Assembly: GCA_012295275.1 (NCBI GenBank)
Contig: CM022677.1
Location: forward strand, 13,206,001-13,270,000
Length of the DNA: 64,000 nt
Source of the DNA: Chrysomallon squamiferum
Taxonomy: Eukaryota > Animalia > Mollusca
Direction of reading: 5' to 3'
Part shown: one piece after another, positions 10,482-44,597 of the stretch
Numbering within the stretch: the first letter of the stretch is position 1
How the letters are laid out: the number at the start of each line of letters is the position of its first letter
Notes under the pieces: model-generated
The model's database searches: none
What the model saw: only the letters and a program-made list of their open reading frames with translations
What the model was told of the DNA's origin: nothing
Translations under genes and position numbers: made by a program

Positions 10482-10525
<44 letters not shown>

Positions 10526-19830: not shown

Positions 19831-19868
19831 ATATTGTTCAGTTGATTATTATCAGTTGTTGAATTAGG

Positions 19869-20234
19869 ATGTTCACAGCTTTGGGTATAATTGCTACTGA
19901 AATCATTGAATTTGTGTTTGATACATCAGTGGAACTTGCTACATCAGCTATTATAGATTCTACCGCTCCAGCTATAGCCTAAATTGTTGGAGCTGATAGT
20001 GTATATCTACCTGAAGCGACTGCTATCGGACAAAGTATAGTTGAATCTTCTGTAGAAGGCACTGCTAGCTATACTAAAACTCAAATAAAGGACGCTTTGG
20101 ATCAATTCACTGATTTTGTGAATTCAAAAGATACAGCAGTAGATAATAACGTTTCATCTGAAGAACGAGATGAATTGGAAACTGAAGAGGACGAATACGT
20201 ATCATATATGCGTACTACTAGTCCAATTTCATGA
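19869..20234 (+). pseudogene. Unit 1 ORF1 (121 aa acidic protein), premature stop
   Basis: MFTALGIIATEIIEFVFD... homologous to 25410 and 36772 ORFs; TAA at ~19980. Confidence 0.85.
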
Positions 20235-22204
20235 ATAAAGGGAAACGTATATTAAACAAGAAAGACGTTACCAGACTTTTGGCTATAGCTAAAGCTAAAG
20301 CATTTGATATATTATCAGAGATAAATGTGCCGGTGGATCAGCGCCAAAACAGGTGGTTACAAATTCGACGTCAATATCCAAATTTACAGATTCCAAATCA
20401 AGATTTCTATTCGGCAATACAAAATATTCGGAACGAATATAACCATATTGAAGATCAAGACAAAGAGGACCCTTTTAATACGCCTATATATCCAGAAGAT
20501 GAACAAGCATTAAAAGCATCAGAACAACAAGGCATGAAACGACAAAACATCGAACCTGGAGGAGAATCTAGCTCCAAAGTTCCTAATAATAATCAACTAT
20601 CACAAGATATATTCCAAAGGAACGTATCTTCAACCTCAAGAGTCCGTAATGGAACCTGATTCTATCATGAACGAAGAGGTAACTGATACGTCTGGAGTTA
20701 ATCCGAGGTATATTACCATTAAAAAAAACATTTAAACGAACATTCACTAGTGAGATTAATTTCTCTAAGCAAAGAAAAGCTACTATGTCAATTATAGATA
20801 ATGCAACAGATGCTTCAGCATGGAAAAATGCAATAGGTGATCCAAATGTGTGAATTTACATTCAATCATGGTGGTCACATTATACCTTATTGGTATAAAG
20901 CAGCTAGCACGAAGGCAGACGATTGGAATTTACCTGATGAGGTTGTAGGCTATAAAATTAAAAAATTCGGATTTAATATAAATAATATGATAATACATGT
21001 TTTAAATAATACTAAATCAGATCCAAATGAAGTACCAGTAATGGCACCTCCAAATGCACGAGTTTGGACATTTACATATATTTACAATGATTATGGATTA
21101 CCTGATAAACATTTGGACCTATCTCATAATAATCGATTCAAAGATGAAGAATGTATGGACAACACATCTCAAAGAAGCATACCGGTTCAACCAGATCATA
21201 AATTATATTTGCCTAGTGACATAGGTATGCAACTGTTAAACAGTGCTTGGAACGGTGAGGGTGCGACTTATACTGCCGAAACACCTAATTACATATACGA
21301 TATGAAAAAACACGATGGATATAGAGAAACAGTTATTAGTGCAGGTGGTTTCGGTTTGGATTATACATGTAAAGATTCACCTTTAGTTATATTTCCAGGA
21401 GAAACAAGTCATACATTAAACTTTACTCAAATTACTGGTATGGGTTAAGAACGATAGATATCAGTTAGCAACGAAAACAAAGCTAACTTAGAATGGCCTA
21501 CGAGTAACAGTAATGACACTTCTAAACATCCATTAGGGACTGCTATCACTACCTATTTTAACCATCAATACAGAAATGTACACTATTCAGCTTGTTATCA
21601 AAATAAAGCTGGTAAAGATTTAGGAGCACCATCGATGGCAGATGATGCTAGCACCAAACTAGGTAAAAGCAGTATATCTAGCAATGATTTAGATAATCCA
21701 AATGTGAACACGTGCATGGACGGTAAACACCGACGCACTTATCAATGCAATAGACCTCCTATGTTCCTAATAGGTTTATACCCTGATGTAGAGAAAACTA
21801 GCAACGGAGCTACATTATTATTTAATTACCATGCTAACATACAAATAACTTATTATAGCGAGGTTGAGTTTTTAGTCAGAACGGCCATGTGTCCAAAATA
21901 CATACCTATAGGTTTGGGTGGATGTCCGTCAGGTAATATGGCAGGACTCATTTTTAAATTGAACGATACTACACCTGTAGGAAATAAAGACAATGTGAAA
22001 CATACAGAACAAGATCAATTCTTAGATGAAACTGTAAAACAATATAAAGATCGAATCGAAAAAACATGGAAAATGAGAATATATGCCCCTATATGGAAAA
22101 ATTGGAATAAACGTAAAGCCAGACGACGATTTATCTGGCCAGTACACGGTGCTTATGGAGATAGAAGTGTACCTATTACAGGAGATTGGTCTTATCCAGT
22201 ATAA
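20231..22204 (+). pseudogene. Unit 1 putative capsid gene, disrupted
   Basis: ORF fragments 20231, 20837 and 21635 align to the 707 aa protein; deletions, frameshifts and a stop at 21446-21448. Confidence 0.85.
20325..20513 (+). CDS. Unit 1 overprinted small ORF in capsid N-terminus (62 aa)
   Basis: Homologous to 31773 and 37228 ORFs (GYKFDVNIQIYRFQIKISIRQYKIFG). Confidence 0.5.
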   Translation: MCRWISAKTGGYKFDVNIQIYRFQIKISIRQYKIFGTNITILKIKTKRTLLIRLYIQKMNKH

Positions 22205-22288
22205 AAACAAAAATAAATAAATGAAAATACTTTCTCATAGTTGCGTAAGAATACAGTTAAAAGTCTTTGTTAATATTTACGTTCATTT

Positions 22289-24248: not shown

Positions 24249-24540
24249 AAATAAACATTAAAAGACATCAGTGCTGATTTATTGTTGTTACGTTGATATT
24301 AATGTTCACTAAAAGTTATTTCTTGAAATAAAATTATTTATTAAAATTAATTACCTTCGTTTAGTTAATTATTTAAATATAACGGAAATGACGTCATATA
24401 AAATAACGTCATTTAAAAAAACGGATATGACGTCATATCCGTTTAAATGATATACTCTTCAAAATAAAAAATAGGGGGGGGGTGTGAAAATGCAAGATAT
24501 GATAGATTATCAACTCTACTCTTGTTATTGTAAAAAAAAC

Positions 24541-24713
24541 AAAGTTCCTCACTACATGGCTTTTTAGCTTTTTGGCTTTTTGACCATAATGTACTTTTAA
24601 CATATGATCCTTCGGGTTCTGGCTACGCCCGAAGGAACGTTATCACCTTCGGGCTAAAAGTACATTATGGTCAAAAAGCCAAAAGGCTAAAAAGCCAGAT
24701 CATGAGGAACTTT
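24541..24713. repeat. Terminal hairpin, apex type A, orientation 1
   Basis: Arms tggctttttagctttttggctttttgaccataatgtactttta / taaaagtacattatggtcaaaaagccaaaaggctaaaaagcca around a GC-rich apex. Confidence 0.9.
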
Positions 24714-24727
24714 GCAATTTCAACCTA

Positions 24728-24969
24728 ACTCTTGTTATTGTAAAAAAAAAAAAAAAAGTTCACGTGGAGTGATCAATGAGATCTGGGGTGAATTTTTAGC
24801 TTTTTGGCTTTTTGACCATAATGTACTTTTAGCCCGAAGGTGATAACGTTCCTTCGGGCGAAGCCAGAACCCTAAGGATCATATGTTAAAAGTACATTAT
24901 GGTCAAAAAGCCAAAAAGCTAAAAAGCCAGATCATGAGGAACTTTTTTTTTTTTACAATAACAAGAGTT
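24728..24969. repeat. Terminal hairpin, apex type A, orientation 2; followed by an orphan half-arm (~24970-25050)
   Basis: Same arms; apex gcccgaaggtgataacgttccttcgggcgaagccagaaccctaaggatcatatgt is the reverse complement (2 mismatches) of the previous apex. Confidence 0.9.
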
Positions 24970-25061
24970 TAAAAGTACATTATGGTCAAAAGCCAAAAAG
25001 TAATTTTAAAAAAAGCCAGATCATGAGGAACTTTGTTTTTACAATAACAAAGGTTGCCCGT

Positions 25062-25292
25062 AACTCAACTCTTGTGTAATTTTTAAAAAACAAAGTATAA
25101 CTGTAATCGATTTTTGGTTTTGCGGTCTTAAAAGCCAATGTGTACTTTTAGCCCGAAGGTGACTAGCTCCTTCGGGCGTAGCCCGAGCCCTACGGTCATA
25201 AGCTAAAAGTACACATTGGCTTTTAAGACCGCAAAACCAAAAATCGATTACAGTTATACTTTGTTTTTTAAAAATTACACAAGAGTTGAGTT
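25062..25292. repeat. Left ITR hairpin of unit 2 (91 bp stem, apex type B)
   Basis: 25062-25152 pairs with 25202-25292; apex contains the sub-hairpin gcccgaagg...ccttcgggc. Confidence 0.95.
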
Positions 25293-25409: not shown

Positions 25410-25775
25410 ATGTTCACAGCATTGGGATTAATAGCAACAGAATTAATAGAATACGCATTCGATGCATCTGTGGAACTTGCCACATCCGCTATATTAGATT
25501 CGACTACACCAGCTATAACTGAAATAATAGGGGCTGATAGTATATTATTAGACCCTGCTATAAATATAGGAACATCTGTAGTTGAATCGGCTGTTGAAGG
25601 TATATCTGATTATACTAAAAATCAGATTGAACAAGCAATTAATGAACTAGGGAATTTCGTAAATACAGAAGGAAAAGATATAGATACCGACGTCACACCC
25701 AATGAACGTAATCAGATAGAGGCTGAAGAAGACGAAAACGTATCATATATATTTACGCGTATACCGGTTTCATGA
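25410..25775 (+). CDS. Unit 2 ORF1, 121 aa acidic protein of unknown function
   Basis: Intact; conserved in four units; stop overlaps the next start (ATGA). Confidence 0.85.
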   Translation: MFTALGLIATELIEYAFDASVELATSAILDSTTPAITEIIGADSILLDPAINIGTSVVESAVEGISDYTKNQIEQAINELGNFVNTEGKDIDTDVTPNERNQIEAEEDENVSYIFTRIPVS

Positions 25776-27895
25776 CAAAAGGCAAACGACTTTTGACGAA
25801 GACAGAGGTCACTCGTCTGTGGGCTATAGCAAAATCTAAAGCATTTAATAAATTAGCTGAACTAAATGTCCCCTATTCAAAACGACAAGAAAGGTGGCTT
25901 CAGATCAGACGTCAGTATCCAAATATACAAATTCTAAATAACGATTTCTATCAGGCAATTCAGAATATTGGGCAAGACTATAACTCTATTGAAGATTCGG
26001 ACGAAGACGACCCTTTCGGCACCCCTTTATTCTACGATAACGAAGAACAACAAGGAGATTTACACGACTCATCCAGACATCCAGATCAATCAGCTATGAA
26101 ACGACATTCAGCTGAACCATCTGGAGGACCAGATGCAAAGTTTAAAGATAATAAACAATTATCTAATAGAATTTCTCAAGATGTATTAGACAGATCTAAT
26201 GCTAAAGGAACATATTTACAACCTGAAGAATCTGTAATGGAACCGGATTCAATAATGAATGAAGAGGTTACAGATACTGATGGAAGTGAGGCAATTGAAG
26301 GTGCACCTATGGCATCGGCTACTGGTAATAATGTATTATACCAAGGTTTTGGTGGAACTACAAAAGTATTGGATCCTAGATACATTACAATTAAAAAGAC
26401 TTTTAAACGTACGTTTACTAGTACAATTAATTTTACAAAAGAACGAAAAGCAGAAATGAAAATATTAGATAACAATACAGATGATGTAAATTGGAAAAAA
26501 GCAATAGGAGATCCAAATGTTTGCGAGTTTAAATTTAATCATGGTGGACATATTATTCCATATTGGTATAAAGCTGCTAGTACTAAACCAGATGATTGGA
26601 ATTTACCAGATGATTTCATTGGTTATAAAGTTAAACGAATAGGCTTTAATATAAATAATATGATAATTCATGTGTTAAATAATAATAAAACAGATCCTAA
26701 TGAAGTTCCAGTTATGGCACCACCTACTTCACGAGTATGGACATTTACAGATATACATAATGATTACGGTTTACCTGAAAATAATTTAATGTTACATCAT
26801 AACCATTATTTTAGAGATGAAGAATGTATGGATAGTGTTGCTGAACGTAGCATAAAGGTACAACCAGATAGAAAATTATATATGCCTAGTGATATGGCTA
26901 TGCAATTATTAAATCATGCATGGACTGGTACAGACGGTATTAACTATAAAGCTGAATCTCCAAATTATATTTATGATATGAAAAAACATGATGGTTATCG
27001 TGAAACGGTCATTAGTGCAGGTGGTTTTGCATTAGATTATACTTGCAAAGATTCACCATTAATATTATTTCCATCTGAAACTTCACATACATTAAATTTT
27101 ACAGATGTTTCAGGGTTATGTCAAAAATCTAAATATCAATGTGCTAATGAAAACAAAGGTAATTTAGAGGTATGGCCTACACATGATATAATAATTACTG
27201 ACAATTCTAAACATCCAATGGGTACAGCTATATGTTGTTATTTTAATCATCAATATAGACGAATACATTATACAGCATGTTTTCAAAATAAAGCATCTAA
27301 TGTATTAGGTGCACCTTCAATGGTAGATGATGGAGGTACTAAATATAGTAACCAAGGTGTAATGCATAATAATGCGAATAATCCTAATGTTGATGTATGT
27401 AAAGATGGATCACATAGACGTACATATCAATGTAATAGACCTCCTATATTTATGATTGGATTATATCCAGATGTAGAAAAAACTAGTGGAGGAACTACAT
27501 TATATTTTAATTATCATGCAAATATTCAAATCACGTATTTTAGTGAAGTAGAATTTGTGGTTAGAACAGGTATGTGTCCTAAATATATTCCAATTGGATT
27601 GGGTGGATGTCCAGGTAATATGTTAGGACTAACATTCAAACAAAATGAATCTACACCAATGGGCAATAAAGATAACGTTAAACATACAGAACAAGATCAG
27701 TTTTTGGGTGAAACAGAAGCAAAATATAAAGAGAGAATACAAAAAACATGGAAAATGCGATGTTTTGCTCCTGTTTGGGATAATTGGAATAGACGTAGAA
27801 ATAGACGTAGACAATTATGGCCAATTCATGGTGCATATGGAGATAGAACAGTTGAAACAATGGCTAATGCAATGGATTGGTCATATCCAATATAA
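25772..27895 (+). CDS. Unit 2 putative capsid protein (707 aa)
   Basis: Intact; size, position in an ITR-bounded genome, disordered N-terminus and beta-rich core (FKRTFTSTINF, GGHIIPYW, KVKRIGFNINNMII) suggest a jelly-roll VP; no PLA2 motif seen. Function is inferred. Confidence 0.7.
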   Translation: MTKGKRLLTKTEVTRLWAIAKSKAFNKLAELNVPYSKRQERWLQIRRQYPNIQILNNDFYQAIQNIGQDYNSIEDSDEDDPFGTPLFYDNEEQQGDLHDSSRHPDQSAMKRHSAEPSGGPDAKFKDNKQLSNRISQDVLDRSNAKGTYLQPEESVMEPDSIMNEEVTDTDGSEAIEGAPMASATGNNVLYQGFGGTTKVLDPRYITIKKTFKRTFTSTINFTKERKAEMKILDNNTDDVNWKKAIGDPNVCEFKFNHGGHIIPYWYKAASTKPDDWNLPDDFIGYKVKRIGFNINNMIIHVLNNNKTDPNEVPVMAPPTSRVWTFTDIHNDYGLPENNLMLHHNHYFRDEECMDSVAERSIKVQPDRKLYMPSDMAMQLLNHAWTGTDGINYKAESPNYIYDMKKHDGYRETVISAGGFALDYTCKDSPLILFPSETSHTLNFTDVSGLCQKSKYQCANENKGNLEVWPTHDIIITDNSKHPMGTAICCYFNHQYRRIHYTACFQNKASNVLGAPSMVDDGGTKYSNQGVMHNNANNPNVDVCKDGSHRRTYQCNRPPIFMIGLYPDVEKTSGGTTLYFNYHANIQITYFSEVEFVVRTGMCPKYIPIGLGGCPGNMLGLTFKQNESTPMGNKDNVKHTEQDQFLGETEAKYKERIQKTWKMRCFAPVWDNWNRRRNRRRQLWPIHGAYGDRTVETMANAMDWSYPI

Positions 27896-27946
27896 TATGG
27901 CGTATGAATACAGTGATTAGTCTTTTATTAACGTTACGTTCAATTT

Positions 27947-28005
27947 GTCACGTATACCATATTACGTCATAATAATGACGTCATGTAAATAAGTGTATAA
28001 ATAAA
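27947..28005 (+). promoter_or_regulatory. Unit 2 internal NS1 promoter
   Basis: gtcacgt, ttacgtca, tgacgtca, tataaataaa (27996). Equivalents at ~33854-33912, ~39321-39378 and ~41744-41800. Confidence 0.65.
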
Positions 28006-28076
28006 GCAACGTTTGAAAAGTTGTCAGTTGTTACTCATCTTTTACTTAAGCACTTACCAGAAAAAAATTACAGATC

Positions 28077-30257
28077 ATGGATAGATTTGTTGATCTACCG
28101 GATCAGACCTTTTACAGTGTAGTAATTGGTCACCTTAACTACGACATGGTACATCCGAAGTATCTCGTACCAAGATGTCTGGCACGAGATAAGGATGGCA
28201 ATTTCATTTATGCCACTGGAAAACAATACATTAAATCGTATGAAATGGACTTACAGGATCTCTTAGATAAGGTGGTTGACCACTGGTCAACCCCCAATTA
28301 TGAAAATCTTCCTCGTGGCCAGGATCGTGTCATTAATGAATTTAAAGCCTTTTTAAGGAATAAATCCTGGAAAACATTGTTAGTATACCACCAAAAGGAT
28401 TGCCAGTCAAATGTTAACCATCCAACATACGGAACGCATTGCCATGTCATATGGAAAACATCTCTTAAAACACCATCTCAGGACAGGCAGTACAGGCGTC
28501 TACATAGAGCAGTATTAGGCGAAGGTGGATACATGGAGATCATGAAACTACGAGATCCACAAAAGTCTACCATAGAAGATTATATAAAATATTTGATGTC
28601 GGATGATGAAAAACAGTTCTTAGGAACGACAGACGAAGGATTGTTACAGATTTGGAATTCGATTGAAAAAGAGATAAACGAAAATGACACAGATATTCTA
28701 AACATTTTGAAAGATTTTTTCGATGATTCTGCAACAAGCAAATTGAATAAAAACACTAATTGCACGATTAGAAATCCAGTTAAGAAATATGACTCAAATG
28801 TTCAACCATCTACATCAGGATATAAACAAGATGGACTTACAGTAAATGAAGTCAAGAGAGATAACATTATAATACAATCAATGGATATTTCAGACAATGC
28901 TAAAACTATGGATTCAGATAAAATATCCATTCCATCACATCTGATAAATACAAAGTCATCCGATACGCTAGAGTTCTTTTATAACCTTATAAAACAATAT
29001 CCAGATGTGAATAAGTTAAATTTATTAATCAGTAAGTTTGAATCAGGCACAAATGAATTCAAAGCATGATGCAATGCAGTTGCAAATGCTTCTGGTGATA
29101 AACTGTTTAACGCAGCAAGATCTAAATATTTAGAAGAACAGGCAGAAAAAACAGCGTTCGAACAATTAAAATCACTTAACGACAAAATCGACCACTACAT
29201 GACCCCGGATGACAGTTTCAAAATGTTTAATTCGTGGTGCGTCGAACAAGAAATACCAGAACGATGGATGTACAGTTTAATTGTTGGATTATTAAAGGGT
29301 AAAGGAAAGAAAAAAATTGGCGTATATTTCCAGGGAGAATCCGACAGCGGAAAAACGATGCTGTCTAGCTCATTATTCGAATGTGTACCAACAGCAGGTA
29401 AAATTGCCAAGGACAATTTTCCTTGGCAAATGTTGGGCAATAAAAAAATAATTCTAGGTGAAGAAATATCCATAAATCAGAGCAACATCGATAAGTATAA
29501 GGACTTACTAAGTGGATCCAAGGCTACCTGTGAGCGGAAAGGCACGACTCCAGTATATTGTCGAGGTAATCTGTGCTTATTAAATTCCAACAACAAATTT
29601 GGGGATGGTTTAACGACATCACAAATTCGAATAATGAAAACTAGGTTATTTCTCATAGAGGGCTTGAAGAGAAGTAACATTCTCAAACAATCCTATGGAT
29701 TGTTGCATCCAAAACTATTCACGGTAGGTCGTGAACCTACAGATGACGAGATCAATTTAGCTCTTGAGAACGATAGAGAGTACTTTATTAACATTAACAA
29801 CATACATAATAATGACAATTCTTTCGAAGGAAGACTCAGTTACTACCACGATCATTTCGATCCTAGTCAAGATTGTAACGAAGATACTACTGAAACTAAT
29901 ATTAAGAAAGAACTGGTTATAAACACAGAACCTCAATACATTGTCATTTCCGATTCCGAAGATGATACTGTATATAATCCATCTCAAGACTTGTTCCGAC
30001 AGTCACAAAACAAAATGAACAATAACAGTCAACATGATAAAGGAATTAAACGAAAGTTCTACGAAGTAGATACAGAAGATGTATCTGATACAGAATCCAT
30101 AGATCCTCAGTACATCACAGTCGATCACGAACCAGAACATGATAGTCAAAAAAAATTTAAATTTTATATTCCACCGTCGCAACCATTTGAAGCAATGTTT
30201 TCTAACACGATTGAAGAAACACAAATGGATATTTTTGATAAATACAAGAGTGAATAA
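28077..30257 (+). pseudogene. NS1: Unit 2 NS1 with a single in-frame TGA (29067-29069)
   Basis: HUH GTHCHVIW, YIKY, Walker A GESDSGKT, Walker B ILGEE, motif C LLNSNN; ORFs 28077 and 29199 share a frame. Confidence 0.88.
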
Positions 30258-30587
30258 GTTATATAAACATTATAAACTATGTTAATTATTACAGTTATGT
30301 ATTGAAATGTTAATTATATTAAATAAAGGTTAATTAATATATATATATTAAATATTAAAATAAATATTTTAATAAAATATGTTGTTAAAATAGTAATAAA
30401 TGTTATTTGTGTATTATTATATAAAATGTTATGTTAATAATAAAATAAAAATGATTAATAAAACATTAATATTATTGTAAATAATAAACAATATTAATAA
30501 TTATATATATTGTTGTTATTTGTTTAATATAATATTATAAAAATATATTAATTTAACACGTGGTCAAAATTGGTATGATGATATACC

Positions 30588-30907: not shown

Positions 30908-30986
30908 ATTGTTATTGTAAAAAAAACAAAGTATAACTAAGATTCGTTTTCAGCTTTCTTACACTTAAATCACGTGGTGTGAAAAA

Positions 30987-33983: not shown

Positions 33984-36161
33984 ATGGATAGATTTGTAGA
34001 TCTACCGGATCAGACATATTATAGCGTAGTAGTTGGTCATTTAAATTATGACATGGTACACCCTAAGTATCTCGTGCCCAGATGTCTTGCACGAGATAAA
34101 GATGGCAACTTCATCTACGCTACAGGAAAGCAATATATCAAATCCTATCAAATGGACGTACAAGATTTATTGGACAAAGTGGTTGACCATTGGTCAACGC
34201 CAAATTATGAGCAACTATCTCGTGGACAAGACAGAGTAATTAATGAACTGAAAGCCTTTTTGAGAAACAAGTCATGGAAAACACTTCTTGTATACCATCA
34301 AAAGGAATGTGAGTCTGTTGCAAATCATACCACTTATGGTACACACTGTCACATAGTTTGGAAGACAACACTTAAAACACCTTCACAGGATCGACAGTAC
34401 AGAAGACTTCACAGAGCGATTTTAACTGAAGGTGGATATATGGAAATAATGAAATTAAAAGATCCTCAGAAATCATCATTAGAACATTATATCAAGTACC
34501 TAATGAATGATGATGAAAAACAGTTCTTAGGAACAACTGATGAAGGAATGCTACAGACATGGAATGATATTGAGAAAGAATTAAATGAAAACGATAATGA
34601 TATAATGAACTTATTGAGAGATTTTTTTGATGAAGCACAGTCAACGAAACTTAATAAAAACATTATATCCAATATAAGAAATCCGGTGAAAAAACAGACC
34701 TCTAATGATGCACCATCAACATCCGGATATAACAAACATGGAATGACTGCAAATGATGTAAAACGAGAAGATGTGATCATACAAGCGATGGATACAACAG
34801 AAACTGTAAACCTTGATACAACTGATAAAATATCAATTCCGTCTCATTTAATCAACACTAAGTCATCGGATACACTTGAATTCTTCTACAAATTGATAAA
34901 GCAGTATCCAGATGTCAATAAGTTAAACCTACTTATCGGTAAATTTGAGTCAGGCAGCAATGAATTCAAAGCACTCTGTAACGCGGTAGCCAATTCATCA
35001 GGAGAAAAACTATTTAAGGCAGCTAGAACAAAATATACAGAAGAACAAGCAGATAAAACAGCTTTTGATCAATTAAAAACAATGAACGACAAAATAGACA
35101 ATTACATGAATCCGGACGATAGTTTTAAAATGTTTAATTCCTGGTGTAGAGAGCAGGAAATACCAGAGAGATGGCTTTACAGTTTGATAGTATCATTATT
35201 GAAAGGAAAGGGCAAGAAAAAAATAGGATTATATTTTCAAGGAGAATCTGACAGTGGAAAGACTATGGTTTCGAGTTCGTTGTTTGAATGTTTACCAACA
35301 GCAGGTAAAATTGCCAAGGATAATTTTCCTTGGCAAATGTTGGGAGGAAAGAAAATAATTCTTGGAGAAGAAATTTCGATTAATCAAACGAACATTGACA
35401 AATACAAAGATTTATTGAGTGGATCGAAAGCGACATGTGAGCGAAAAGGGACAACACCTGTATATTGCAGAGGTAACTTATGTTTATTGAACTCTAACAA
35501 CAAATTTGGCGATGGTCTGACAAGTTCCCAAATACGAATAATGAAAACGAGACTGTATTTGATTGAAGGTTTGAAACGAAGTAACATTCTTAAACAATGT
35601 TATGGACTTTTACATCCAAAGTTATTTGTAGTAGGACGTGAACCTTCAGATGATGAAATGAGTTTATCAATGGAAAATGACAGAGAATACTTCATTAATA
35701 TAAATAACATTCACAACAATGACAATTCGTTTGAAGGACGACTAAGCTATTATCACGATCATTTTGACAATAGCCAGGAAAGTACCCAAATAAATAATGA
35801 CAATATTAAAAGAGATTTAATTGAAAATACAGAACCGGAATACATAGTAATTCCTGATTCCGACGAAGAAAGTGTTTATAATCCGTCGCAGGATATGTTC
35901 ATACATAATCAGAATACATTAAAGCAAGAGAGTCAACATAATACAGGTGTAAAACGAAAACACTACGAAGTTGAGACAGAAGACATATCAGAGGATGATG
36001 AAGTGGATCCTAATTACATAACAATTGATAATGAACCAAATAATATCAGTGATAAACGATTTAAGTTTTACATTCCTCCAACGCAACCATTCGATGCGAT
36101 GTTTACAGATACCATTCAAGAAACCCAAATGGACATTTTCCACAAATATAAGAGTGAATAA
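33984..36161 (+). CDS. NS1: Unit 3 intact NS1/Rep (725 aa; HUH endonuclease + SF3 helicase)
   Basis: MDRFVDLP start shared with other units; GTHCHIVW, YIKY, GLYFQGESDSGKT, ILGEE, KDLLSG..CERKG, LLNSNN; acidic C-terminal tail. Confidence 0.92.
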   Translation: MDRFVDLPDQTYYSVVVGHLNYDMVHPKYLVPRCLARDKDGNFIYATGKQYIKSYQMDVQDLLDKVVDHWSTPNYEQLSRGQDRVINELKAFLRNKSWKTLLVYHQKECESVANHTTYGTHCHIVWKTTLKTPSQDRQYRRLHRAILTEGGYMEIMKLKDPQKSSLEHYIKYLMNDDEKQFLGTTDEGMLQTWNDIEKELNENDNDIMNLLRDFFDEAQSTKLNKNIISNIRNPVKKQTSNDAPSTSGYNKHGMTANDVKREDVIIQAMDTTETVNLDTTDKISIPSHLINTKSSDTLEFFYKLIKQYPDVNKLNLLIGKFESGSNEFKALCNAVANSSGEKLFKAARTKYTEEQADKTAFDQLKTMNDKIDNYMNPDDSFKMFNSWCREQEIPERWLYSLIVSLLKGKGKKKIGLYFQGESDSGKTMVSSSLFECLPTAGKIAKDNFPWQMLGGKKIILGEEISINQTNIDKYKDLLSGSKATCERKGTTPVYCRGNLCLLNSNNKFGDGLTSSQIRIMKTRLYLIEGLKRSNILKQCYGLLHPKLFVVGREPSDDEMSLSMENDREYFININNIHNNDNSFEGRLSYYHDHFDNSQESTQINNDNIKRDLIENTEPEYIVIPDSDEESVYNPSQDMFIHNQNTLKQESQHNTGVKRKHYEVETEDISEDDEVDPNYITIDNEPNNISDKRFKFYIPPTQPFDAMFTDTIQETQMDIFHKYKSE

Positions 36162-36423
36162 ATATATAAACATCATCAATATAGCATTAATATATTAAAA
36201 TATTGTTAACAGTTCAAAATGTTATATATTAAAATGTTGTATTATCATATTAATAAATATATTGTTAAACATATATAATCTTGTTATTATTTGTAATAAT
36301 ATTTGTATAATTGTTAATAATGTAATAAATAATAGTATAGTAATTAATAATATATAAATAAAATAAAAAATAAATAACATGTTATTAAATAATAAACACG
36401 TGGTTAAAATCGGATGATGAGAT

Positions 36424-36662
36424 ATCCCAACTCAACTCTTGTGTAATTTTTAAAAAACTATGTATAACTTTTCTGGCTTTTTGGTTTTTTGGTCTTAAAA
36501 GCCAATATGTACTTTTAGCTTATGACCATAGGGCTCGGGCTACGCCCGTAGGAGCTAGTCACCTTCGGGTTAAAAGTACATTTGGCTTTCAAGACCAAAA
36601 AACCAAAAAACCAGTCATGTTATACTATGTTTTATTTACAATAACAAGAGTTGGGTTGGGAT
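36424..36662. repeat. Single chimeric hairpin joining units 3 and 4
   Basis: Left arm and apex match the unit 3 left ITR; right arm is a diverged variant (tttacaataacaagagttgggttgggat); CACGTG on both flanks (36397, 36686). Confidence 0.9.
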
Positions 36663-36771
36663 TTATCAGGTCCCAAATTCATACCCACGTGTTATTATAC
36701 GTCATATCCGTTATAAATTATATAATTTATGTATATAATTCATTTATACTATAATTATTTGTTACGATAGC

Positions 36772-37137
36772 ATGTTCACTGCATTAGGAATAATTGCCAC
36801 AGAGATAATCGAATACGCATTCGATGCATCAGTAGAAGTTGCTACATCAGCAATAATAGAATCTACTATTCCTGCAATTACTGAAGTTATAGGAGCTGAT
36901 AGTGTGTTATTAGATCCTGCTATAAATATTGGACAATCTGTAGTAGAATCAGCTGTTGAAGGTATATCTACTTACACAAAAAACCAGATTCAAGAAGCTG
37001 TAAGAGAATTAAGTAACTTTAATAAATCAGAAGGAAAGGAAATAGATAATAACGTCACAACAAACGAACGTGACCAATTAGAAGAGGAGGAAGACGAAAA
37101 CGTTTCATATATATACAGCAATATACCGATTTCATGA
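36772..37137 (+). CDS. Unit 4 ORF1, 121 aa
   Basis: Intact homolog of 25410..25775; ATGA overlap with VP. Confidence 0.85.
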   Translation: MFTALGIIATEIIEYAFDASVEVATSAIIESTIPAITEVIGADSVLLDPAINIGQSVVESAVEGISTYTKNQIQEAVRELSNFNKSEGKEIDNNVTTNERDQLEEEEDENVSYIYSNIPIS

Positions 37138-39254
37138 CAAAAGGAAAAAGACTTTTGACCAAGAAAGAAGTCACACGGCTTTGGGCTATTGCGAAAACTA
37201 AAGCGTTTTCCATATTAGGAGATCTAAATGTCCCAAACGAAAAAAGGCAAGAAAAGTGGCTTCAGATCAGACGTCAGTATCCAAATATACAAATTCCAAA
37301 TAACGATCTCTATCAGGCAATTCAAAATTTTGGGCAAAACTATTACGCTGTTGCGGATTCGGACGAAGACGATCCTTTCGGGACCCCTTTATTCGACTAC
37401 GAATCTGAACAACGAACAGATATTCACGACACATCCGGAAATCAAGATAAATCAGTTATGAAAAGACATTCTGATGAGCCTTCGGGCGGTTCAAATGAAA
37501 AGGTACCAAACAATAATCAGTTATCTAGTACTGTATCTCAAGATGTATTGGATAGATCTAACTCTAAAGGTACTTATCTGCAACCTGAAGAATCTGTTAT
37601 GGACCCAGATTCCATAATGAATGAAGAAGTTACAGACACAGGAGGCAGCGAGGCAGTAGAAGGTGCTCCGATGGCATCTGCAACTGGTAACAATGTATTA
37701 TATCAAGGTTTTGGTGGAACTACCAGAGGAGTTGATCCACGATATATAACAATCAAAAAAACATTTAAAAGAACATTTACCAGTACTATTAATTTTACTA
37801 AAACTAGAAAAGCTGAAATGAAAGTGTTAGATAATAACACAGATGATGTTAATTGGAAAAAAGCTATAGGTGATCCTAATGTTTGTGAACTTACGTTCAA
37901 TCACGGAGGTCATATAATACCGTATTGGTACAAAGCAGCCAGCACTAAACCGGAGGATTGGAATTTACCAGACGATTTTATGGGATACAGAGTAAAAAGG
38001 ATAGGATTTAACATAAATAATATGATCATCCATGTACTTAATAACAATAAATCCGATCCCAACGAAGTTCCAGTTATGGCTCCACCTAATTCACGAGTTT
38101 GGACATTTACAGATGTAAACAATGATTATGGTTTACCAGAATTTTTTTTAAATCTGTCTCATAATCATTATTTTAGAGACGAAGAATGCATGGATAGTGT
38201 TAGTGACAGAAGTATACCTGTACAACCAGATCGTAAATTGTATTTACCTAGCGACATGGCTATGCAGTTATTAAATCATGCTTGGAAAGGAGACGGTATT
38301 TCATTTACAGCTGAATCACCAAATTACATTTACGATATGAAGAAACACGACGGTTATCGAGAAACTGTTATTAGTGCTGGTGGTTTTGCTTTGGACTATA
38401 CATGTAAGGATTCACCTACAGTTTTATTTCCATCAGAAGCATCTCATACCCTCAATTTCACTGATGTTTCTGGTTTATGCCAGAAAACTAAATATCAATG
38501 TTCTAATGAAAACAAAGGTAATTTGGAAGTATGGCCGACACAGGACATTGTAGTAACAAATACAACACAACATCCTATGGGTACAGCAATATGTTGTTAT
38601 TTCAATCATCAATATAGAAGAATTCATTATACAGCTTGTTTTCAAAACAAAGCATCAAATGTACTTGGTGCACCGTCCATGGTGGATGATGGCGGTACTA
38701 AGTTAAGTAATCAAGGTGTTATGCACAATAATGCAAACAATCCGAATATAGACGTATGTAAAGACGGATCACACAGACGTACTTACCAGTGCAACACACC
38801 GCCTATATTCTTGATAGGATTATATCCAGATATAGAGAAAACTAGTGGTGGAAATACACTGTTTTTCAATTATCATGCAAACATACAGATAACGTATTAC
38901 AGCGAGATAGAATTCGTTATTAGAACTGGAATGTGTCCAAAATACATTCCGATAGGATTGGGCGAATGTCCAGGTCCTATGCAAGAACTTACTTACAAGG
39001 CAGATGAATCGACGCCCATGGGTAACAAAGATAACGTGAAATACACGGAACAAGATCAGTTCCTAGGTGACACAGAATCTAAATATAAGGAGAGAATTCA
39101 GAAAACATGGAAAATGAGAACCACTGCTCCCGTTTGGGACAATTGGAACAAACGCAGAGCTAGACGTAGACAGTTATGGCCATTACACGGTGCTTATGGA
39201 GACAGAACGGTTGAAACCATGGGAAATTCTATTGATTGGTCATATCCTTTATAA
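37134..39254 (+). CDS. Unit 4 putative capsid protein (706 aa)
   Basis: Intact; more diverged from units 2 and 3 than they are from each other. Confidence 0.7.
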   Translation: MTKGKRLLTKKEVTRLWAIAKTKAFSILGDLNVPNEKRQEKWLQIRRQYPNIQIPNNDLYQAIQNFGQNYYAVADSDEDDPFGTPLFDYESEQRTDIHDTSGNQDKSVMKRHSDEPSGGSNEKVPNNNQLSSTVSQDVLDRSNSKGTYLQPEESVMDPDSIMNEEVTDTGGSEAVEGAPMASATGNNVLYQGFGGTTRGVDPRYITIKKTFKRTFTSTINFTKTRKAEMKVLDNNTDDVNWKKAIGDPNVCELTFNHGGHIIPYWYKAASTKPEDWNLPDDFMGYRVKRIGFNINNMIIHVLNNNKSDPNEVPVMAPPNSRVWTFTDVNNDYGLPEFFLNLSHNHYFRDEECMDSVSDRSIPVQPDRKLYLPSDMAMQLLNHAWKGDGISFTAESPNYIYDMKKHDGYRETVISAGGFALDYTCKDSPTVLFPSEASHTLNFTDVSGLCQKTKYQCSNENKGNLEVWPTQDIVVTNTTQHPMGTAICCYFNHQYRRIHYTACFQNKASNVLGAPSMVDDGGTKLSNQGVMHNNANNPNIDVCKDGSHRRTYQCNTPPIFLIGLYPDIEKTSGGNTLFFNYHANIQITYYSEIEFVIRTGMCPKYIPIGLGECPGPMQELTYKADESTPMGNKDNVKYTEQDQFLGDTESKYKERIQKTWKMRTTAPVWDNWNKRRARRRQLWPLHGAYGDRTVETMGNSIDWSYPL
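37228..37461 (+). CDS. Unit 4 overprinted 77 aa basic ORF
   Basis: GFRSDVSIQIYKFQITISIRQFKILGKTITLL nearly identical to the unit 3 version. Confidence 0.6.
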   Translation: MSQTKKGKKSGFRSDVSIQIYKFQITISIRQFKILGKTITLLRIRTKTILSGPLYSTTNLNNEQIFTTHPEIKINQL

Positions 39255-39450
39255 ATAGTATTAGTTAATTTATGCGTATGAATACAGTTAATAGTCTTTT
39301 TCAAATATTACGTTCAGTTTGTCACGTACATCATATGACGTCATGATTATTACGTCATATTATAACGTTATAAATAAAGAATGTTTGAAACGTCGTCATT
39401 CGTTAACGTTATCTGTTACACGAAAGATTATAATTGTATTTAGCTGTAAA

Positions 39451-40890
39451 ATGGATAGATTTGTAGATCTACCAGAGGAAAATTATTACAGTGTTTTGGT
39501 GGGCCATATCAACTATGATATGGTTCACCCGAAATACTTAGTTCCCCGCTGCTTGGCAAAAGACAAGGACGGAAAATTCGTATATGCAGCGGGAAAGAAT
39601 TACATCAAATCTTACCAGATGGACATTCAAGACATCATGGACAAACCGGTCGATCACTGGGCCACGCCCAGTTATGAATATTTGGCGAAGGGGCAAGATC
39701 GTGTCATCACTGAACTCAAAGCATTTGTAAGAAACAAAAATTGGAAAACACTTATGGTCTACCACCAAAAAGAATGCGAAGCCATTTCCAATCAACCAAC
39801 CTATGGCACTCATGTGTACATAATATGGAAGACCACTTTAAAAACACCATCTCAGGATAGGCAATACAGGCGTTTACACAGGGCAATCCTTAATGAAAAC
39901 GGATATTTAAAAATCATGACGCTGAAAGATCCACAGAAAATATCAGTCGAAAGTTATATGAAATATCTCATGAATGATATGGAGAAACAGTTCCTTGGGA
40001 CTAATGACGAAAAAATGCTTACCATGTGGAATGAAATTGAAAAGCAGATACATGATGATGATAAAGACATTCTTAACATATTAAATGATTTCTTCGATGC
40101 ATCAGGATCAAAGACGCTCGATAGTTCAATTATGACATCTAAAATAAGAGAGCCAATTCGTAAGGATGACGTCAATAAAAATAAAGATACATCAGTGAAG
40201 CCTACAATTACGGTGAAAAGCGGTATGTCAGTCAATGACATGAAATCAGAAAATAATTTGATTGAAGCAATGGATACATCAGACATCATAACTAAAGATG
40301 CAGATCAATCAGACAAGCCTGTTATTCCATCGCGTCTGATAAACAATAAGTCTGCAGAGACATTGGACTTCTTTTACAAACTTATTACACAATATCCTGA
40401 GATCAACAAACTTAATTTACTCATAAGTAAATTTGATTCGAATAGCAATGAATTCAAGGCATTGTGTAATGCTGTAGCTAATTCTTCTGGCGACAAGTTG
40501 TTCAAGGCGGCTCGTTCTAAATACATAGAAGAACAGTCAGATAAATCTGAATGACAATCTCGAACATTACATGACGCCAGAAGATAGTTTCAAGATTTTC
40601 AATTCATGGTGCAGAGAACAAGACATTGAGGAAAGGTGGTTGTTCAGTCTCATAGTATCACTGTTGAAGGGCAAAGGTAAAAAGAAAGTCGGGATGTATT
40701 TTCAGGGTGATTCAGACAGCGGCAAGACCATGATGACAAGTTCCATGTTTGAGTGCCTATCTACTTCTGGAAAGATTGCCAAGGATAATTTTCCTTGGCA
40801 AATGCCGGGTGGTAAAAAAGTCATACTGGGAGAGGAAATATCCATCACACAGACAAATATAGACAAATACAAAGATTTATTGAGCGGTAA
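39451..40890 (+). pseudogene. NS1: Unit 4 NS1, frameshifted and 3'-truncated
   Basis: HUH altered to THVY; short deletion/frameshift at ~40548; Walker A GDSDSGKT; ends at KDLLSG. Confidence 0.88.
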
Positions 40891-41670
40891 CTGATAATAC
40901 TTTTAAAGCTATTGATCCTAATTACATCTATAACATTAAGAAACATGATGGTTATAGAGAAACCGTTGTAAGTGGAGGTGGCTTTGCTCTCGACTATACT
41001 TGTAAAGATTCTCCGTTGGTATTATTTCCTGGAGAGGCAATTATCAATGTAGCAATGAGAGTTCAAAAACGTTGGAAGTATGGCCCACTCATGAGTTAAC
41101 TGTAACTGATGTTGCACTTCATCCTTATGCAAAATATAGAAATGTAGACTATAAAGCGTGTTTTCAAAATGCTGCAGGTGAACAATTGGGTGTACTGCTA
41201 TGGCAAGTGATCCTTCGAATAAACTTGCTAAAAAAGGAGTAACCGCAAATTACATAAGTGCTCAGAATTATAATACAGAAATGGATGGTTCTCATAGAAG
41301 AACTTATCAGTGTAATAGACCACCCATGTTTCTCATTGGTATATATCAAGACGTAGAAAAAAACTACTAGTGGCAACACCTTATTTTTTAAGTATCATGC
41401 TAATCTGCAGATTACATATTACAGTGAAGTAGAGTTCATAGTAAGAACAGGATTCTGTCCTAAGTATATTCCTATAGGACTAGGTGGTTGTCCAGGTCCC
41501 ATGAGAGGTCTGTATATATTTGGTAAGGCTGTATCCGGAAATAAAGATGTCGTTAAACATACTGAACAAGATCAATTCTTAGGTCAAAATGCACAACAAT
41601 ATGTTGATCGTATACGTAAAACATGGGAAATGAGAATTGCCGCTCCTATATGGGACAATTGGAATCGTTA
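40888..41670 (+). pseudogene. Unit 5 capsid gene 3' fragment
   Basis: Reads PNYIYNIKKHDGYRETVVSGGGFALDYTCKDSP...RRTYQCNRPP...KHTEQDQFLG...WDNWNR, with indels. Confidence 0.88.
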
Positions 41671-41885
41671 ATTACTATTTTAAAAGAAGTATTTGTTATT
41701 ACGTTGTGTAAGAATTTTGTGAAAGTCTGATATGTTATACATAACGTCACATGTCGTTACGTCATATCATTGACGTCATGTAAATAATGCTATAAATAAA
41801 GCTGACGTTCGAAAATATTTTTGTCGTTTGTCATTAATTGACTACTTAAACGTTAAAAAAAGTATATTTATAATCGAATAGAAAT

Positions 41886-44005
41886 ATGGACAAATATCTT
41901 GAAGAAGTTAATAATACTTTCGAGTATTATTCAATTATCTTAGGACACAAAGAATACGACTTGGTGCATCCTAATTATTTGGTTCCAAGATGTCTTGCAA
42001 AAGATAAAAACGGAAAGTACGTGTATGCTATGGGAAAAAATTACATCAAGAGTTTTGTAATGGACCATCAGGACATTTTAGACAAGTGCGTCGATCATTG
42101 GTCAACTCCGCAATCTGAGTTCATGATGAGAGGTCAGAACAGAGTTATAACTGAACTTAAAAATATGTTAAGAAACAAAAACTGGAATATGCTGTTAGTC
42201 TATCACGATACATCTTGACATGGACTCTAATATACCCACAAATGGAAGTCATGTTCATATTATATGGAAGACAACCATGACTCATCCAAGTCAAGATCGT
42301 CAATACAGACGTTTACACCGAGCTGTTCTTGCCGAAAAAGGATACATAAAATTAAGGAAGTTACGTCAGCCATATAAGTACTCTCTATCTGAGTTTATGA
42401 ATTATCTAATAAGAGATGATGAGAAAATGTTCTTAGGAACAAACTGTCCTTAGATGCTCAGTAAATGGAATTTGTTGGTCGATCAAGAAAAAGACTGGCT
42501 AAAAGACGATTACAATGAAACTAGTGTATTTGAAGATACATCTCTGAATGAAGATATAAAGACATTTGAAGTCAAACCTCCCAAGAAGAAGATGACTGTT
42601 CACGAATTCGTAAGCGAACATAATGATGTATTAACACATGGACAAGGAATGACAGTAAAGCAGATAAATGAAGAAGCAAAGAACATTATACATATCGATG
42701 ATGATATTGCAGATAAAAAGCCTGAAAAGATTCCAAGTCATCTTATGTCTACTAAATCAGCAGACACATTTGACTTTTTCTACAACTTGGTTCAAAAATA
42801 TCCAGATGTCAATAAACTGAATATGCTGATAAGTAAATTTGATACATCAAGTAACGAGTTTAAAGCTGTTTGTAATGCTGTTGCCAACATATCTGGAGAA
42901 AAAATATTTAAAGCAGCAAGAACAAAGTATCTAATGGAAGAAGCTGACAAAAGTGCCTACGATCAAATAAAAGCTCTCGACGATAGCATAGAAAATTACA
43001 TGACACCAGAGGATTCCTTGAAAATATTCAACAGTTGATGCCAGGAACAAGAGATACCAGAGTGATGGTTTTATGTACTCATGAATACCCTTCTCAAAGG
43101 CAAAGGCAAAAAGAAAATAGGAATATACTTACAAGGCGAAAGCGATTCAGGAAAGACGATGGTATCATCAAGTTTATTCGAGCCATTGACATGTTCGGGC
43201 AAGACAGCTAAAGACAATTTCCCATGGCAAATGTTGGGTGACAAAAAAATCGTTATTGGAGAAGAAATCGCTATTACACAGGTGAATATAGATAAATATA
43301 AAGATCTTCTCAGCGGAAGTAAAGCAACGTGCGAAAGGAAAGGAACAACACCAGTCTATTGCAAAGCAAGCTTGTGTATACTAAATAGTAACATTTTTTG
43401 GTCAGAACATTACGGCAACGCAAATGAGCATAATGAAAACTAGATTATATTTTATTTGAAGAAAAGTAATGTATTAAAAAGAGCCTACGGATTGTTACAT
43501 CCTAAACTATTCACCTTGTGCCAAGATCCATCAGAAGATGAAATAATGGTTGCCATTGAAAATGATAAACAATTCTTTAAAGATAAACTGAATCCATTAG
43601 AAAACGACAAGACAATTGAAGCTAAATACAGTTACTTCCATGACTCGTTCGATAATGATTCGCAAGAAACACGTGGAGTAAAAAGGCAATACGATAACAT
43701 CGAAGCCTACATACAAAATGAAGAAAACGATGTCAATGAGAAGGAAGACATCGATGAATCTCCAAAGAAAAAACGAAAAATTATGAAAGCAAAACGATCA
43801 AAATGTTATGATAAGTGGTAACACTTCAGATGAACACTCCCGAGATCTGTTCATATCATGTGAAGGCGATAACAAAGCTAGTGATGATACAGTTCCAGAA
43901 GCTTATATGGACAACAATCAATCGTTGGCTATTGATATCGAGGATGTTATTCCTCCATCGCAAATTAATTACAAAGTATTTGACAATTTTCGTTCGTGTA
44001 AATGA
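41886..44005 (+). pseudogene. NS1: Unit 5 NS1, multiple stops and frameshifts; most divergent copy
   Basis: Fragments 41886, 42220 (GSHVHIIW), 42454, 43081 (GESDSGKT), 43456 and 43808. Confidence 0.88.
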
Positions 44006-44597
44006 ACATTAAATCATAAAAATTATATCATTCATGCTGTTCAAACTGTTACTTATCTTCTTACGTTAATAAAAGTTAAATAATTAATTCTACTTAGTTT
44101 GTCATATGTTTATATTAATTTTATATATAAATACAACGAAAAATAACATTATTAATAAAAAAAAAATTAAAAAAAATTGATTCTAAATTCAGTATCACAA
44201 TATTATAAATTCTTCAATAAGAACAGTCCATGATTCACACAAGTAATGTTTTTAAAATGTTATTTTATCCAGTTATTCAGTTCTTTATATTTACTGTGGA
44301 GATGTTTTATCTTCTGTTTACTTAGTTCAGTACAGTCAGAAAACCTGAAGAACTTGGAGGCAAACTTGTCAAGTCATTTAGATTCAGTGTACATCAGTTC
44401 TTGTTAATAGCTTTCTGTGGTGACTGAAATATAAAATATTACATTCAAACATTTTAACAAGACCCACTATAATTTTATATTTTATCATTTGAATCTGAAG
44501 AAATGTTTTCAACCAATAATAAGTACAGTTAATTTAACTGAAATAAAATAAAGTTTAATTATATTTATTTAAACAGTCTTGTTGGACCTCTATTTTT

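Follow-up and report, generated by a model that had tools for sequence, protein, structure and literature searches.

An array of five parvovirus genomes

Positions 19835-44200 of the window (the whole stretch of 64,000 nucleotides that was analyzed) hold an endogenous array of five distinct strains of one capsid-first parvovirus lineage, and we propose, with a probability of roughly 0.6, that it was built by serial germline capture at resident hairpins. Self-BLAST and a tblastn map place five co-oriented parvovirus genomes head to tail on one strand at these coordinates, as the preliminary description had claimed for five same-strand units that are not identical. The order within a unit is small ORF, capsid gene and NS1 gene, flanked by hairpins, and the units are regularly spaced at 5.4-5.9 kb; units 2 and 3 measure ~5.6-5.7 kb from hairpin to hairpin, within the 4-6 kb expected of a parvovirus genome. 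The same two analyses show that the array contains this virus family alone, and the window outside it yielded no further convincing viral piece (the best protein matches had E-values of 1.6 and 7.7, and those of hairpin DNA were at least 0.05). The features are as follows, with the strand given where one applies.

19524..19833, + strand: decayed RNase H-like remnant of a repeat with high copy number, probably from a non-LTR retrotransposon, adjoining unit 1 on the host side of the left junction; very high contig depth
19835..24510, + strand: unit 1, with small ORF 19869-20234, capsid 20231-22204 and NS1 22455-24248
24484..25050: junction 1/2, a pair of divergent (type A) hairpins whose cores point in opposite directions, an extra arm fragment and an E-box-bearing genome end at 24761
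25062..25292: unit 2 left terminal hairpin, 91 nt arms, 100% complementary, z -24.5
25410..30257, + strand: unit 2 genes, with small ORF 25410-25775, capsid 25772-27895 and NS1 28077-30257
30557..30990: junction 2/3, unit 2 right arm and core, a second, distinct core together with its arm (30738-30910), a partial arm and an E-box-bearing leftover end at 30971
30983..31231: unit 3 left terminal hairpin, inner arm short by 28 nt
31330..36161, + strand: unit 3 genes, with small ORF from 31330 (frameshifted), capsid 31679-33802 and NS1 33984-36161
36397..36691: junction 3/4, one chimeric hairpin, unit-3-like in its left arm and core and unit-4-like in its right arm
36772..40893, + strand: unit 4, with small ORF 36772-37137, capsid 37134-39254 and NS1 from 39451
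40895..44200, + strand: unit 5, a part-genome, with broken capsid second half 40902-41668, promoter-like region and broken NS1 from 41886

The translation of the leftmost piece contains W.P.H..I.GNE.AD..AK, which we take to be an RNase H motif, and Pfam gave no family for the RNase H-like frame submitted from it. Unit 1 has suffered about eight breaks, one of which removed the helicase segment with Walker A/B. Unit 2 carries a promoter-like region between capsid and NS1 and a single in-frame NS1 stop at 29067, and the NS1 of unit 3 keeps the HUH motif, motif III and Walker A, B and C. In the NS1 of unit 4 the second HUH histidine is substituted, the frame shifts near 40550 and the gene is truncated within the helicase at ~40893. 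Unit 5 has neither small ORF nor left hairpin, and the initial ~400 codons of its capsid gene are missing; it had been treated as a decayed genome but is in fact a part-genome, joined to unit 4 by a deletion fusion and not by a hairpin. The claim that the outer units lack outer hairpins holds for the left side of unit 1 and for unit 5, which has a hairpin on neither side, although unit 1 bears a hairpin stack on its right.

Gene identities and the capsid-first layout

The downstream gene is NS1, with matches to Pfam Parvo_NS1 (PF01057, E 2.9e-8) and to parvovirus NS1 in the PDB (E 4.5e-5), and it carries the HUH nuclease, motif III and the SF3 helicase Walker A/B and C motifs. The capsid gene had no Pfam or PDB match by sequence, and was modeled with AlphaFold2 from a 40-row alignment (pLDDT 60, pTM 0.59; the single-sequence fold reached pLDDT 28). 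The Foldseek matches listed for this model were either capsids of parvoviruses or proteins of Parvoviridae, with best E-values of 1.8e-9 (PDB) and 1.4e-14 (BFVD) and modest TM-scores against parvovirus capsids of 0.3 by query. Judged by the predicted fold, the upstream gene is a parvovirus-type single jelly-roll capsid gene.

The capsid gene precedes NS1 on one strand in all five units, the reverse of the textbook NS-first order, and the small ORF overlaps the capsid start by ATGA in the four of four units that retain it. A 2024 review (PMC11357303) places NS genes on the left and the capsid on the right in ‘all parvoviruses’, and the array units, with their ATGA overlap, are parvovirus genomes that depart from that layout. 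A circularly permuted or two-segment NS-first genome was considered and rejected, because the hairpins sit in the spacer between NS1 and the small ORF, while the spacer between capsid and NS1 has promoter-like motifs and neither hairpin arm nor core motif. The preliminary description was silent on this gene order and on the leftover genome ends in the junctions, both of which were found here. Our literature search, with most subscription papers and supplements outside its scope, returned no account of a parvovirus with capsid-first order on a single strand, nor of a hairpin-linked array of several parvovirus strains, and neither a free genome nor a related locus of this lineage was retrieved from viral contigs or metagenome contigs.

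The small ORF could be assigned to no family (best Pfam E 0.065, best Atlas score 0.80). The PLA2 domain that characterizes the minor capsid protein of Parvovirinae and Densovirinae was not found: the motif HDxxY is absent from the small ORF (both open copies) and from the capsid (all three open copies), with no PLA2 match in Pfam. No Rfam match was obtained. The first 120 capsid codons are near-identical; an overprinted frame behind this near-identity was not found, both other + frames having many stops.

Divergence under selection

By the measure of their substitution ratios, the comparisons between units show that these diverged as replicating viruses under purifying selection, as had been claimed. 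Capsid dN/dS is 0.062-0.197 in nine of ten unit pairs, the tenth being saturated, and ~0.06-0.09 among the inner units, and that of the small ORF is 0.11-0.28 (6/6 pairs). NS1 is saturated at synonymous sites (pS 0.78-0.92, pN/pS 0.15-0.39, 10/10 pairs), and its identity between some units is only 54-59%. Every bootstrap upper bound on these ratios, in all three genes, lies below 0.65. The third-codon-position bias noted earlier is real in the comparison of the unit 2 and unit 3 capsids, which differ at codon positions 1, 2 and 3 by 27, 23 and 152 over 706 codons. Unit 2 might be thought a capsid/NS1 recombinant (pS between units 2 and 3 of 0.36 in the capsid against 0.78 in NS1); we do not count it as one, NS1 being more diverged in most pairs and in a second host.

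The ratios bear directly on the possibility that one insertion was duplicated in tandem and then drifted, or that co-infecting viruses were mis-assembled. The regular unit spacing, hairpin stacks that are hard to assemble and the unbridged state of junction 1/2 among the contigs listed would suit such an origin, but dN/dS near 1, as expected of drift, was found in none of the three genes, and the arms of the hairpins have changed in pairs. Moreover, the stop-bearing unit 2 occurs in runs of several studies and a unit-1 contig extends into the host repeat, and hence we regard this explanation as very improbable.

Hairpins and junctions

Both arms of a hairpin have changed together, which places the divergence during viral replication. 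Specifically, the two arms of the unit 2 left hairpin agree at all 83 sites, as do the left-outer and right arms of unit 3, whereas the arms of unit 2 and unit 3 differ from each other at 10 of 83; the probability of one hairpin staying perfect under independent drift is ~3e-5. The core is the same at both ends of unit 2, unit 3 has its own two-base variant at both ends, and cores occur in both orientations (flip and flop). Unit 2 cannot be read as one intact genome with matching termini, because 12 of 83 sites distinguish its left arm from its right, which counts against the serial-capture model. Altogether there are six arm types among 10 arms, plus two extra E-box right-type ends.

The claim that units are joined at hairpins is borne out at junction 3/4, a single hairpin made of a unit-3 arm and a unit-4 arm, whose alignment over ~83 nt shows 13 substitutions and 2 gap columns. 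A clean hybrid of this kind, which the serial-capture model predicts, is seen at one of the three hairpin junctions; 1/2, with a hairpin of 176 nt arms that are 95% complementary, and 2/3 are tangled. From the leftover ends in the junctions it seems that units have also been lost from the array.

Decay and order of arrival

Breaks, counted by hand on the tblastn map, number ~8, 1, 1, 2 and 9 in units 1 to 5, and an equal break rate per base is rejected (G-test, p=3e-4). The outer units are indeed decayed and units 2 and 3 carry few lesions, as described earlier, but unit 4 is equally little decayed apart from its truncation. Trees that covered the array units, their relatives and one Elysia protein, and no classified parvovirus members, nest as (5,(1,(4,(2,3)))). 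We do not take this order as proof, and by itself it is weak, because 16 of 120 orders nest in this way and duplication also nests. The proposal that the newest units lie in the middle is thus backed by lower decay inside and by the nested trees but is not proven; on these sequence data, late arrival of the inner units is consistent with the evidence.

The uneven decay also bears on whether a mixed concatemer, formed in a cell infected by several strains, was captured once or twice and then remodeled in place by deletion and duplication. Genomes joined at terminal repeats arise when parvoviruses replicate and when AAV persists (circular episomes are described in PMC7354565), and such a concatemer would explain the co-orientation and the hybrid hairpins with no resident target. 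However, units captured together should decay alike, in contrast to the range of 1 to ~9 breaks, and at least five strains, with NS1 as diverged as given above, would have been needed in one germ cell, with a repeat of the event in a second host. We consider such an origin decidedly unlikely.

Endogenous status and copy number

The units are an endogenous viral element, joined to host-type flanks and common to runs, and the earlier preference for this over mis-assembly of co-infecting viruses is upheld. Seven of the 10 runs listed, from three studies, contain at least half of the array words, and one of these runs may be the source of the assembly. No RNA run was among those listed, which has no bearing on expression. 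Contigs of the unit 2 NS1 differ at 0-1 positions over 626-904 bases in 4/4 runs compared, and a zero-difference contig covers the in-frame stop, so that the stop-bearing sequence is common to runs of several studies. At the left junction, a high-depth unit-1 contig in one run (X1) begins ~31 bases within the flanking host repeat. The contig comparison covered units 1 and 2 and the left flank, and no contig among those listed spans junction 1/2 or the whole stretch compared.

Unit-1-like DNA stands at ~3-21x the contig depth of unit 2, varies between runs and is free of some breaks of this unit 1 copy; the runs also show a sixth strain. This depth indicates that duplication also shapes the locus and that the assembly is possibly collapsed. 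Scattered copies of these strains may also lie elsewhere in the host genome. Successive addition of strains, as first described, is likely but incomplete as an account, for the locus also seems to gain units by post-integration duplication and to lose others.

The depth and the missing breaks would also follow if the units were a vertically inherited, parvovirus-derived mobile element, whose own NS1 mobilizes copies that are selected as elements and re-insert at hairpins with no infection needed. The inner units do retain open capsid and NS1 frames, and post-integration purifying selection is reported for tandem geminivirus-like elements of yam (PMC5014472). Nevertheless, we hold this to be unlikely, since the inner-unit capsid ratios imply selection for particles and synonymous sites are saturated between neighbors, as against the 0-1 differences between runs. 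The start of the X1 contig within the flanking repeat suggests instead that a chromosomal block was amplified.

A likely second array

A public contig of 297,455 bases carries at least five overlapping NS1 genes, 76-95% identical to one another, and at least four capsid genes, and a contig of 8,418 bases has two capsid genes and one NS1. Further genes belong to a public contig of 60,905 bases, and Logan contigs of 6-7 kb encode capsid relatives. Three of the NS1 genes from the second host were placed in the tree, where they form their own clade (100/100), sister to the array clade. The larger contig is likely a second array in another host, as judged from genes that were grouped by equal contig size.

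Proposed mechanism

For the serial capture that we favor, we propose that the genome of an arriving strain, either linear or closed through its terminal repeats like AAV episomes, would recombine with a resident hairpin at the conserved stretch of arm tip and core, plausibly assisted by its own NS1 nicking the resident origin. A single crossover would produce a hybrid hairpin of the kind seen at junction 3/4 and restore a hairpin on either side of the newcomer, so that the insertion target persists. Older units would be displaced outward and then decay, units would be excised by deletion between hairpins, with orphan ends staying behind, other deletions would fuse neighbors (units 4 and 5), and parts of the array, such as the unit-1 type, may have been amplified later.

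A more specific reading, which we advance tentatively and with the odds somewhat against it, is that this undescribed capsid-first lineage targets its own fossils, with NS1 recognizing the hairpin origin of an earlier insertion while the locus gains new strains and loses old ones. If so, the locus would be a self-renewing, ordered record of infection in different host species, made without CRISPR-like or piRNA-trapping host machinery.

Relation to known systems

Endogenous parvoviruses are usually regarded as rare, random accidents. If serial capture is correct, an old viral insertion is a landing site for its relatives, the array is a heritable, ordered infection record of a DNA virus, and parvovirus Rep has a natural form of site-directed integration into a viral and not a host target. 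AAV concatemers are joined at their ITRs, much like the terminal-repeat joins of the array. Xer-dependent phage arrays at dif in Vibrio likewise arise by serial insertion of different elements, with the target restored each time, but depend on a recombinase and a site of the host, neither of which is evident here.

Rep-dependent integration of AAV at AAVS1 (PMC7354565) shares the HUH nuclease, SF3 helicase, terminal hairpins and preference for one site; AAVS1, however, is host sequence and the event is somatic and involves one virus, while the target proposed here is an earlier viral insertion, inherited and serving several strains. The tandem mosquito-densovirus-like elements of Aag2 cells (PMC13711794) are also near full-length tandem parvovirus genomes with terminal repeats in a host assembly. 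They closely resemble a single virus (AalDV-1) and occur in either orientation; tests of adult mosquitoes did not detect them, and ddPCR put their number at ~3 where 22 had been assembled. In contrast, the present array has different strains, saturated synonymous sites, one strand and occurrence in runs of three studies. Geminivirus-related DNA of Nicotiana and EGV1 of yam (PMC5014472) are direct tandem repeats of Rep-encoding ssDNA viruses with origins, and related repeat classes cluster on the chromosome; these are partial circular-virus genomes from one or two integrations, with no capsid gene described in the repeat, unlike the whole, hairpin-linked genomes of many strains found here. Tandem LTR-retrotransposons (PMC11899658) are similarly head to tail with common internal LTRs, with a single insertion as their reported origin.

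The jumbled IHHNV element of Penaeus monodon (PMC8982415) is another parvovirus-derived locus common to conspecific animals, but its fragments are reordered, inverted and ~99% identical to one IHHNV-element sequence, whereas the units here are whole, colinear and diverged. This difference counts against a host-selected antiviral, piRNA-like locus, in which insertion is not aimed at hairpins and viral sequence is kept for protective transcripts, in that complete genomes, linked through their terminal repeats, were inserted here instead of scrambled fragments. The array is also limited to this virus family, and hairpin recombination alone explains the common strand. We find such a locus quite improbable, even though several strains share one strand at one site, a pattern likely recurring in the second host, and the hairpin stacks could yield double-stranded RNA. 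Protection might nonetheless arise as a by-product of the array, and with a locus of this kind the question of whether such archives protect their host becomes testable.

An array of endogenous parvoviral genomes

A steady strand skew sets the array apart from its AT-rich, microsatellite-rich flanks, and self-comparison of the window resolves it into five blocks, all on one strand and ~65-81% identical in DNA, which bears out the preliminary description of five co-oriented units (1-5, left to right) that are not identical copies. Mapping of the unit 3 and unit 4 proteins across the window gave three frames per unit, namely a small ORF (121 codons), an upstream gene (~706 codons) and a downstream gene (~725 codons), with spacings of 5541, 5920 and 5442 bases between small ORF starts. 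The beginning of unit 5 is missing, and what is left is joined to a truncated unit 4. The features are (window positions):

10426-12627, + strand: TRIM-NHL-like host gene ~7 kb to the left of the array, in which Pfam shows a RING finger, a coiled coil and an NHL/beta-propeller; a CA-rich repeat lies within its second open frame (480 codons)
19524-19833, + strand: RNase H-like piece of a very high-copy repeat, abutting unit 1
19835-44200, + strand: the array
24484-25050, 30557-30990 and 36397-36691: hairpin junctions 1/2, 2/3 and 3/4
58300-58432: two neighbouring near-perfect palindromes (70 and 58 bases) with TA runs at their centres, unlike the viral hairpins
59679-59878: sole assembly gap of the window, distant from the array
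60293-62819: satellite-like arrays (unit sizes ~111, 68, 101 and 58 bases) immediately to the right of the gap

The downstream gene is NS1, with a match to Pfam Parvo_NS1 (E 2.9e-8) and with parvovirus NS1 and AAV Rep as its top PDB matches; units 2 and 3 retain the HUH, motif III and Walker motifs, unit 4 has an altered HUH, and unit 1 lacks the Walker A/B part. The upstream gene, a capsid gene, had no match in Pfam and PDB sequence searches and 55 relatives among 1.84 billion representatives. Folded from 40 aligned rows, it gave a beta-rich model (pLDDT 60, pTM 0.59) whose best structural matches were parvovirus capsids in the PDB (E 1.8e-9) and Parvoviridae proteins in BFVD (E 1.4e-14), and the Atlas ranking put parvovirus capsid clusters first with scores of 0.90-0.91, weak by Atlas's own grading. 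Only one of its relatives is named, a hypothetical protein from the sea slug Elysia crispata (KAK3773240.1, P0097; 27% identity over 379 columns); in that gene model the capsid relative is fused behind a coiled-coil region, and it may be another endogenous element. A PLA2 motif is absent from the units' proteins; the 121-residue small protein belongs to no known family, and our guess is that it stands in for the missing PLA2.

The locus is real and consists of endogenous parvoviral elements whose genome layout is unusual. The hairpins sit in the spacer that separates NS1 from the following small ORF, with none between capsid and NS1, so that the native order along a single strand is hairpin, small ORF, capsid, NS1, hairpin. 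The capsid-NS1 spacer carries motifs that we take to be CRE-like and TATA-like. In all four units that retain the small ORF its stop codon and the start codon of the capsid gene overlap in an ATGA (20231, 25772, 31679, 37134), which suggests that translation of the two is coupled. According to a 2024 review, NS lies to the left of capsid in all parvoviruses (PMC11357303), an order likewise stated in PMC12297876; our literature search for a capsid-first single-strand parvovirus found none, which is no proof of absence.

Divergence during viral replication

Stops, and six codons around breaks, were removed before codons were compared. Capsid dN/dS came to 0.062 (units 2-3), 0.076 (2-4) and 0.086 (3-4), and to 0.08-0.20 in pairs involving unit 1 or 5, except for one saturated pair; small ORF values were 0.11-0.28, and NS1 synonymous sites were saturated in all ten pairs (pS 0.78-0.92, pN/pS 0.15-0.39). 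The proposed divergence under purifying selection is thus upheld, the capsid and small ORF ratios lying far from the value near 1 that drift after duplication would give. The hairpin arms provide a test of divergence during viral replication that is independent of the codon data. In rolling-hairpin replication one arm is copied from the other, so changes are paired, whereas drift after duplication would break pairing, with a chance of ~3e-5 that even one hairpin stayed perfect. The 91-base arms of the unit 2 left hairpin are 100% complementary, and the left-outer arm of unit 3 is identical to its right arm while differing from the unit 2 left arms at 10 of 83 sites. Gene conversion within palindromes could produce some of this pattern, but it would not make the two ends of unit 3 alike and leave those of unit 2 different. 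The left and right ends of unit 2 differ at 12 of 83 sites, which counts against a tidy model.

As a separate observation, units 2 and 3 are nearly alike over the opening 120 codons of the capsid gene (25772-26130 and 31679-32040), where 3-6% of third positions differ, compared with 13-33% downstream; no overprinted frame was found there, and the near-identity could be a conversion tract or DNA-level constraint.

Joining at hairpins and proposed order of arrival

The units are joined at hairpins. Junction 3/4 is a single hairpin made of the left arm and core of unit 3 and the right arm of unit 4 (13 substitutions, 2 gap columns). In junction 2/3 the right arm and core of unit 2 are followed by a second, different core that has an arm to itself, by a piece of an arm and by a spare end bearing an E-box; junction 1/2 contains a divergent hairpin twice, its cores in opposite orientation, plus a fragment and another spare end. 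Ten arms of six types were extracted (the matrix omits the unit 3 inner left arm, which carries a deletion), and the extra arms and spare ends appear to be termini of genomes that have otherwise been lost.

Decay is unequal, with about 8, 1, 1, 2 and 9 breaks in units 1-5, counted by hand from the protein map (G 21.1, p=3e-4). In the trees of capsid and of NS1, for which breaks were read as X, units 1-4 branch alike as (1,(4,(2,3))), and unit 5 falls outside them in an open fork. The earlier proposal that the newest units lie in the middle fares less clearly: the unequal breaks and nested trees fit an array that grew from its interior, but of 120 unit orders 16 would hold the tree clades together.

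Based on these data we propose, with a probability of about 0.6, that the array was built by serial capture at resident hairpins, the best-supported reading. Units would have arrived at separate times, each incoming genome recombining with a resident hairpin; NS1 nicking may help the joining, by analogy with AAV Rep at AAVS1 as outlined in PMC7354565, and later loss and amplification of units would have followed. Capture of a single mixed concatemer, which would likewise bring together several strains, is improbable when set beside the unequal breaks.

Inheritance and variable depth

At least half of the words of 30400-37000 are present in seven of the ten runs listed, from three studies and all of organism A, one of which may be the assembly's own sample. 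Contigs of four of these seven runs were compared with 19255-30250. Those that cover NS1 of unit 2 show 1/904, 0/889, 1/889 and 1/626 base differences from the window, and all span the in-frame stop, which the zero-difference contig must carry; this is inherited DNA, not co-infecting virus. None of the contigs listed crosses hairpin junction 1/2. Given the contigs and the hairpin arms, duplication or mis-assembly is a highly improbable origin. A host-selected antiviral locus is very unlikely. A second NS1 variant in three runs, at a depth like that of unit 2, differs at 83-84 of 904 bases and is a further strain, unit 3 being only 70-79% identical there.

Unit-1 contigs had depths of 116-207, 249-603, 226-259 and 305-1757 in the four runs, against 37-38, 36-38, 22-27 and 83 for unit 2; depth is not copy number, so this only hints that unit-1 DNA is variably amplified. 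The high-depth form lacks some breaks of the window's unit 1, and in one run (X1) its contig begins ~31 bases inside the flanking RNase H-like repeat. An inherited mobile family, with which such amplification would agree, is unlikely; serial capture remains our preferred reading. In another run (X7) a contig of depth 340 joins 27895 to 25065, capsid end directly to hairpin, with 38 bases on the short side, hinting weakly at capsid-only units without NS1.

Known systems and a likely second array

Endogenous parvoviral elements are known, and a many-strain array with hybrid hairpins is a new variant. Tandem parvoviral elements are described in Aag2 cells (22 copies assembled, ~3 by ddPCR; PMC13711794); these are of one lineage, whereas the array here holds many strains. 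Shrimp carry scrambled IHHNV elements (PMC8982415) and plants tandem geminivirus-like repeats (PMC5014472), and there are reports of parvovirus-related sequences in molluscs (PMC5013282) and of complete elements in beetles (PMC13426907). Our literature search found no description of many-strain whole genomes linked by hybrid hairpins, although supplements might list such loci.

The nearest relatives in the protein collection (~50% identity) come from ENA contigs, cluster members being assigned to one contig by equal contig size in bases. A 297,455-base contig has at least five overlapping NS1 genes (76-95% identical mutually) and at least four capsid genes, a 60,905-base contig at least four NS1 and three capsid genes of the same strains, and an 8,418-base contig two capsid genes and one NS1; many of these genes are fragments, which may reflect sequencing errors or decay. 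In the NS1 tree three genes from these contigs form their own clade apart from the window's units (100/100). A second multi-strain array is likely. Further capsid-related pieces (P0025, P0065, P0066, P0074 and P0076), on ENA contigs of 559,615, 104,510, 337,743 and 311,507 bases, suggest more insertions or hosts.
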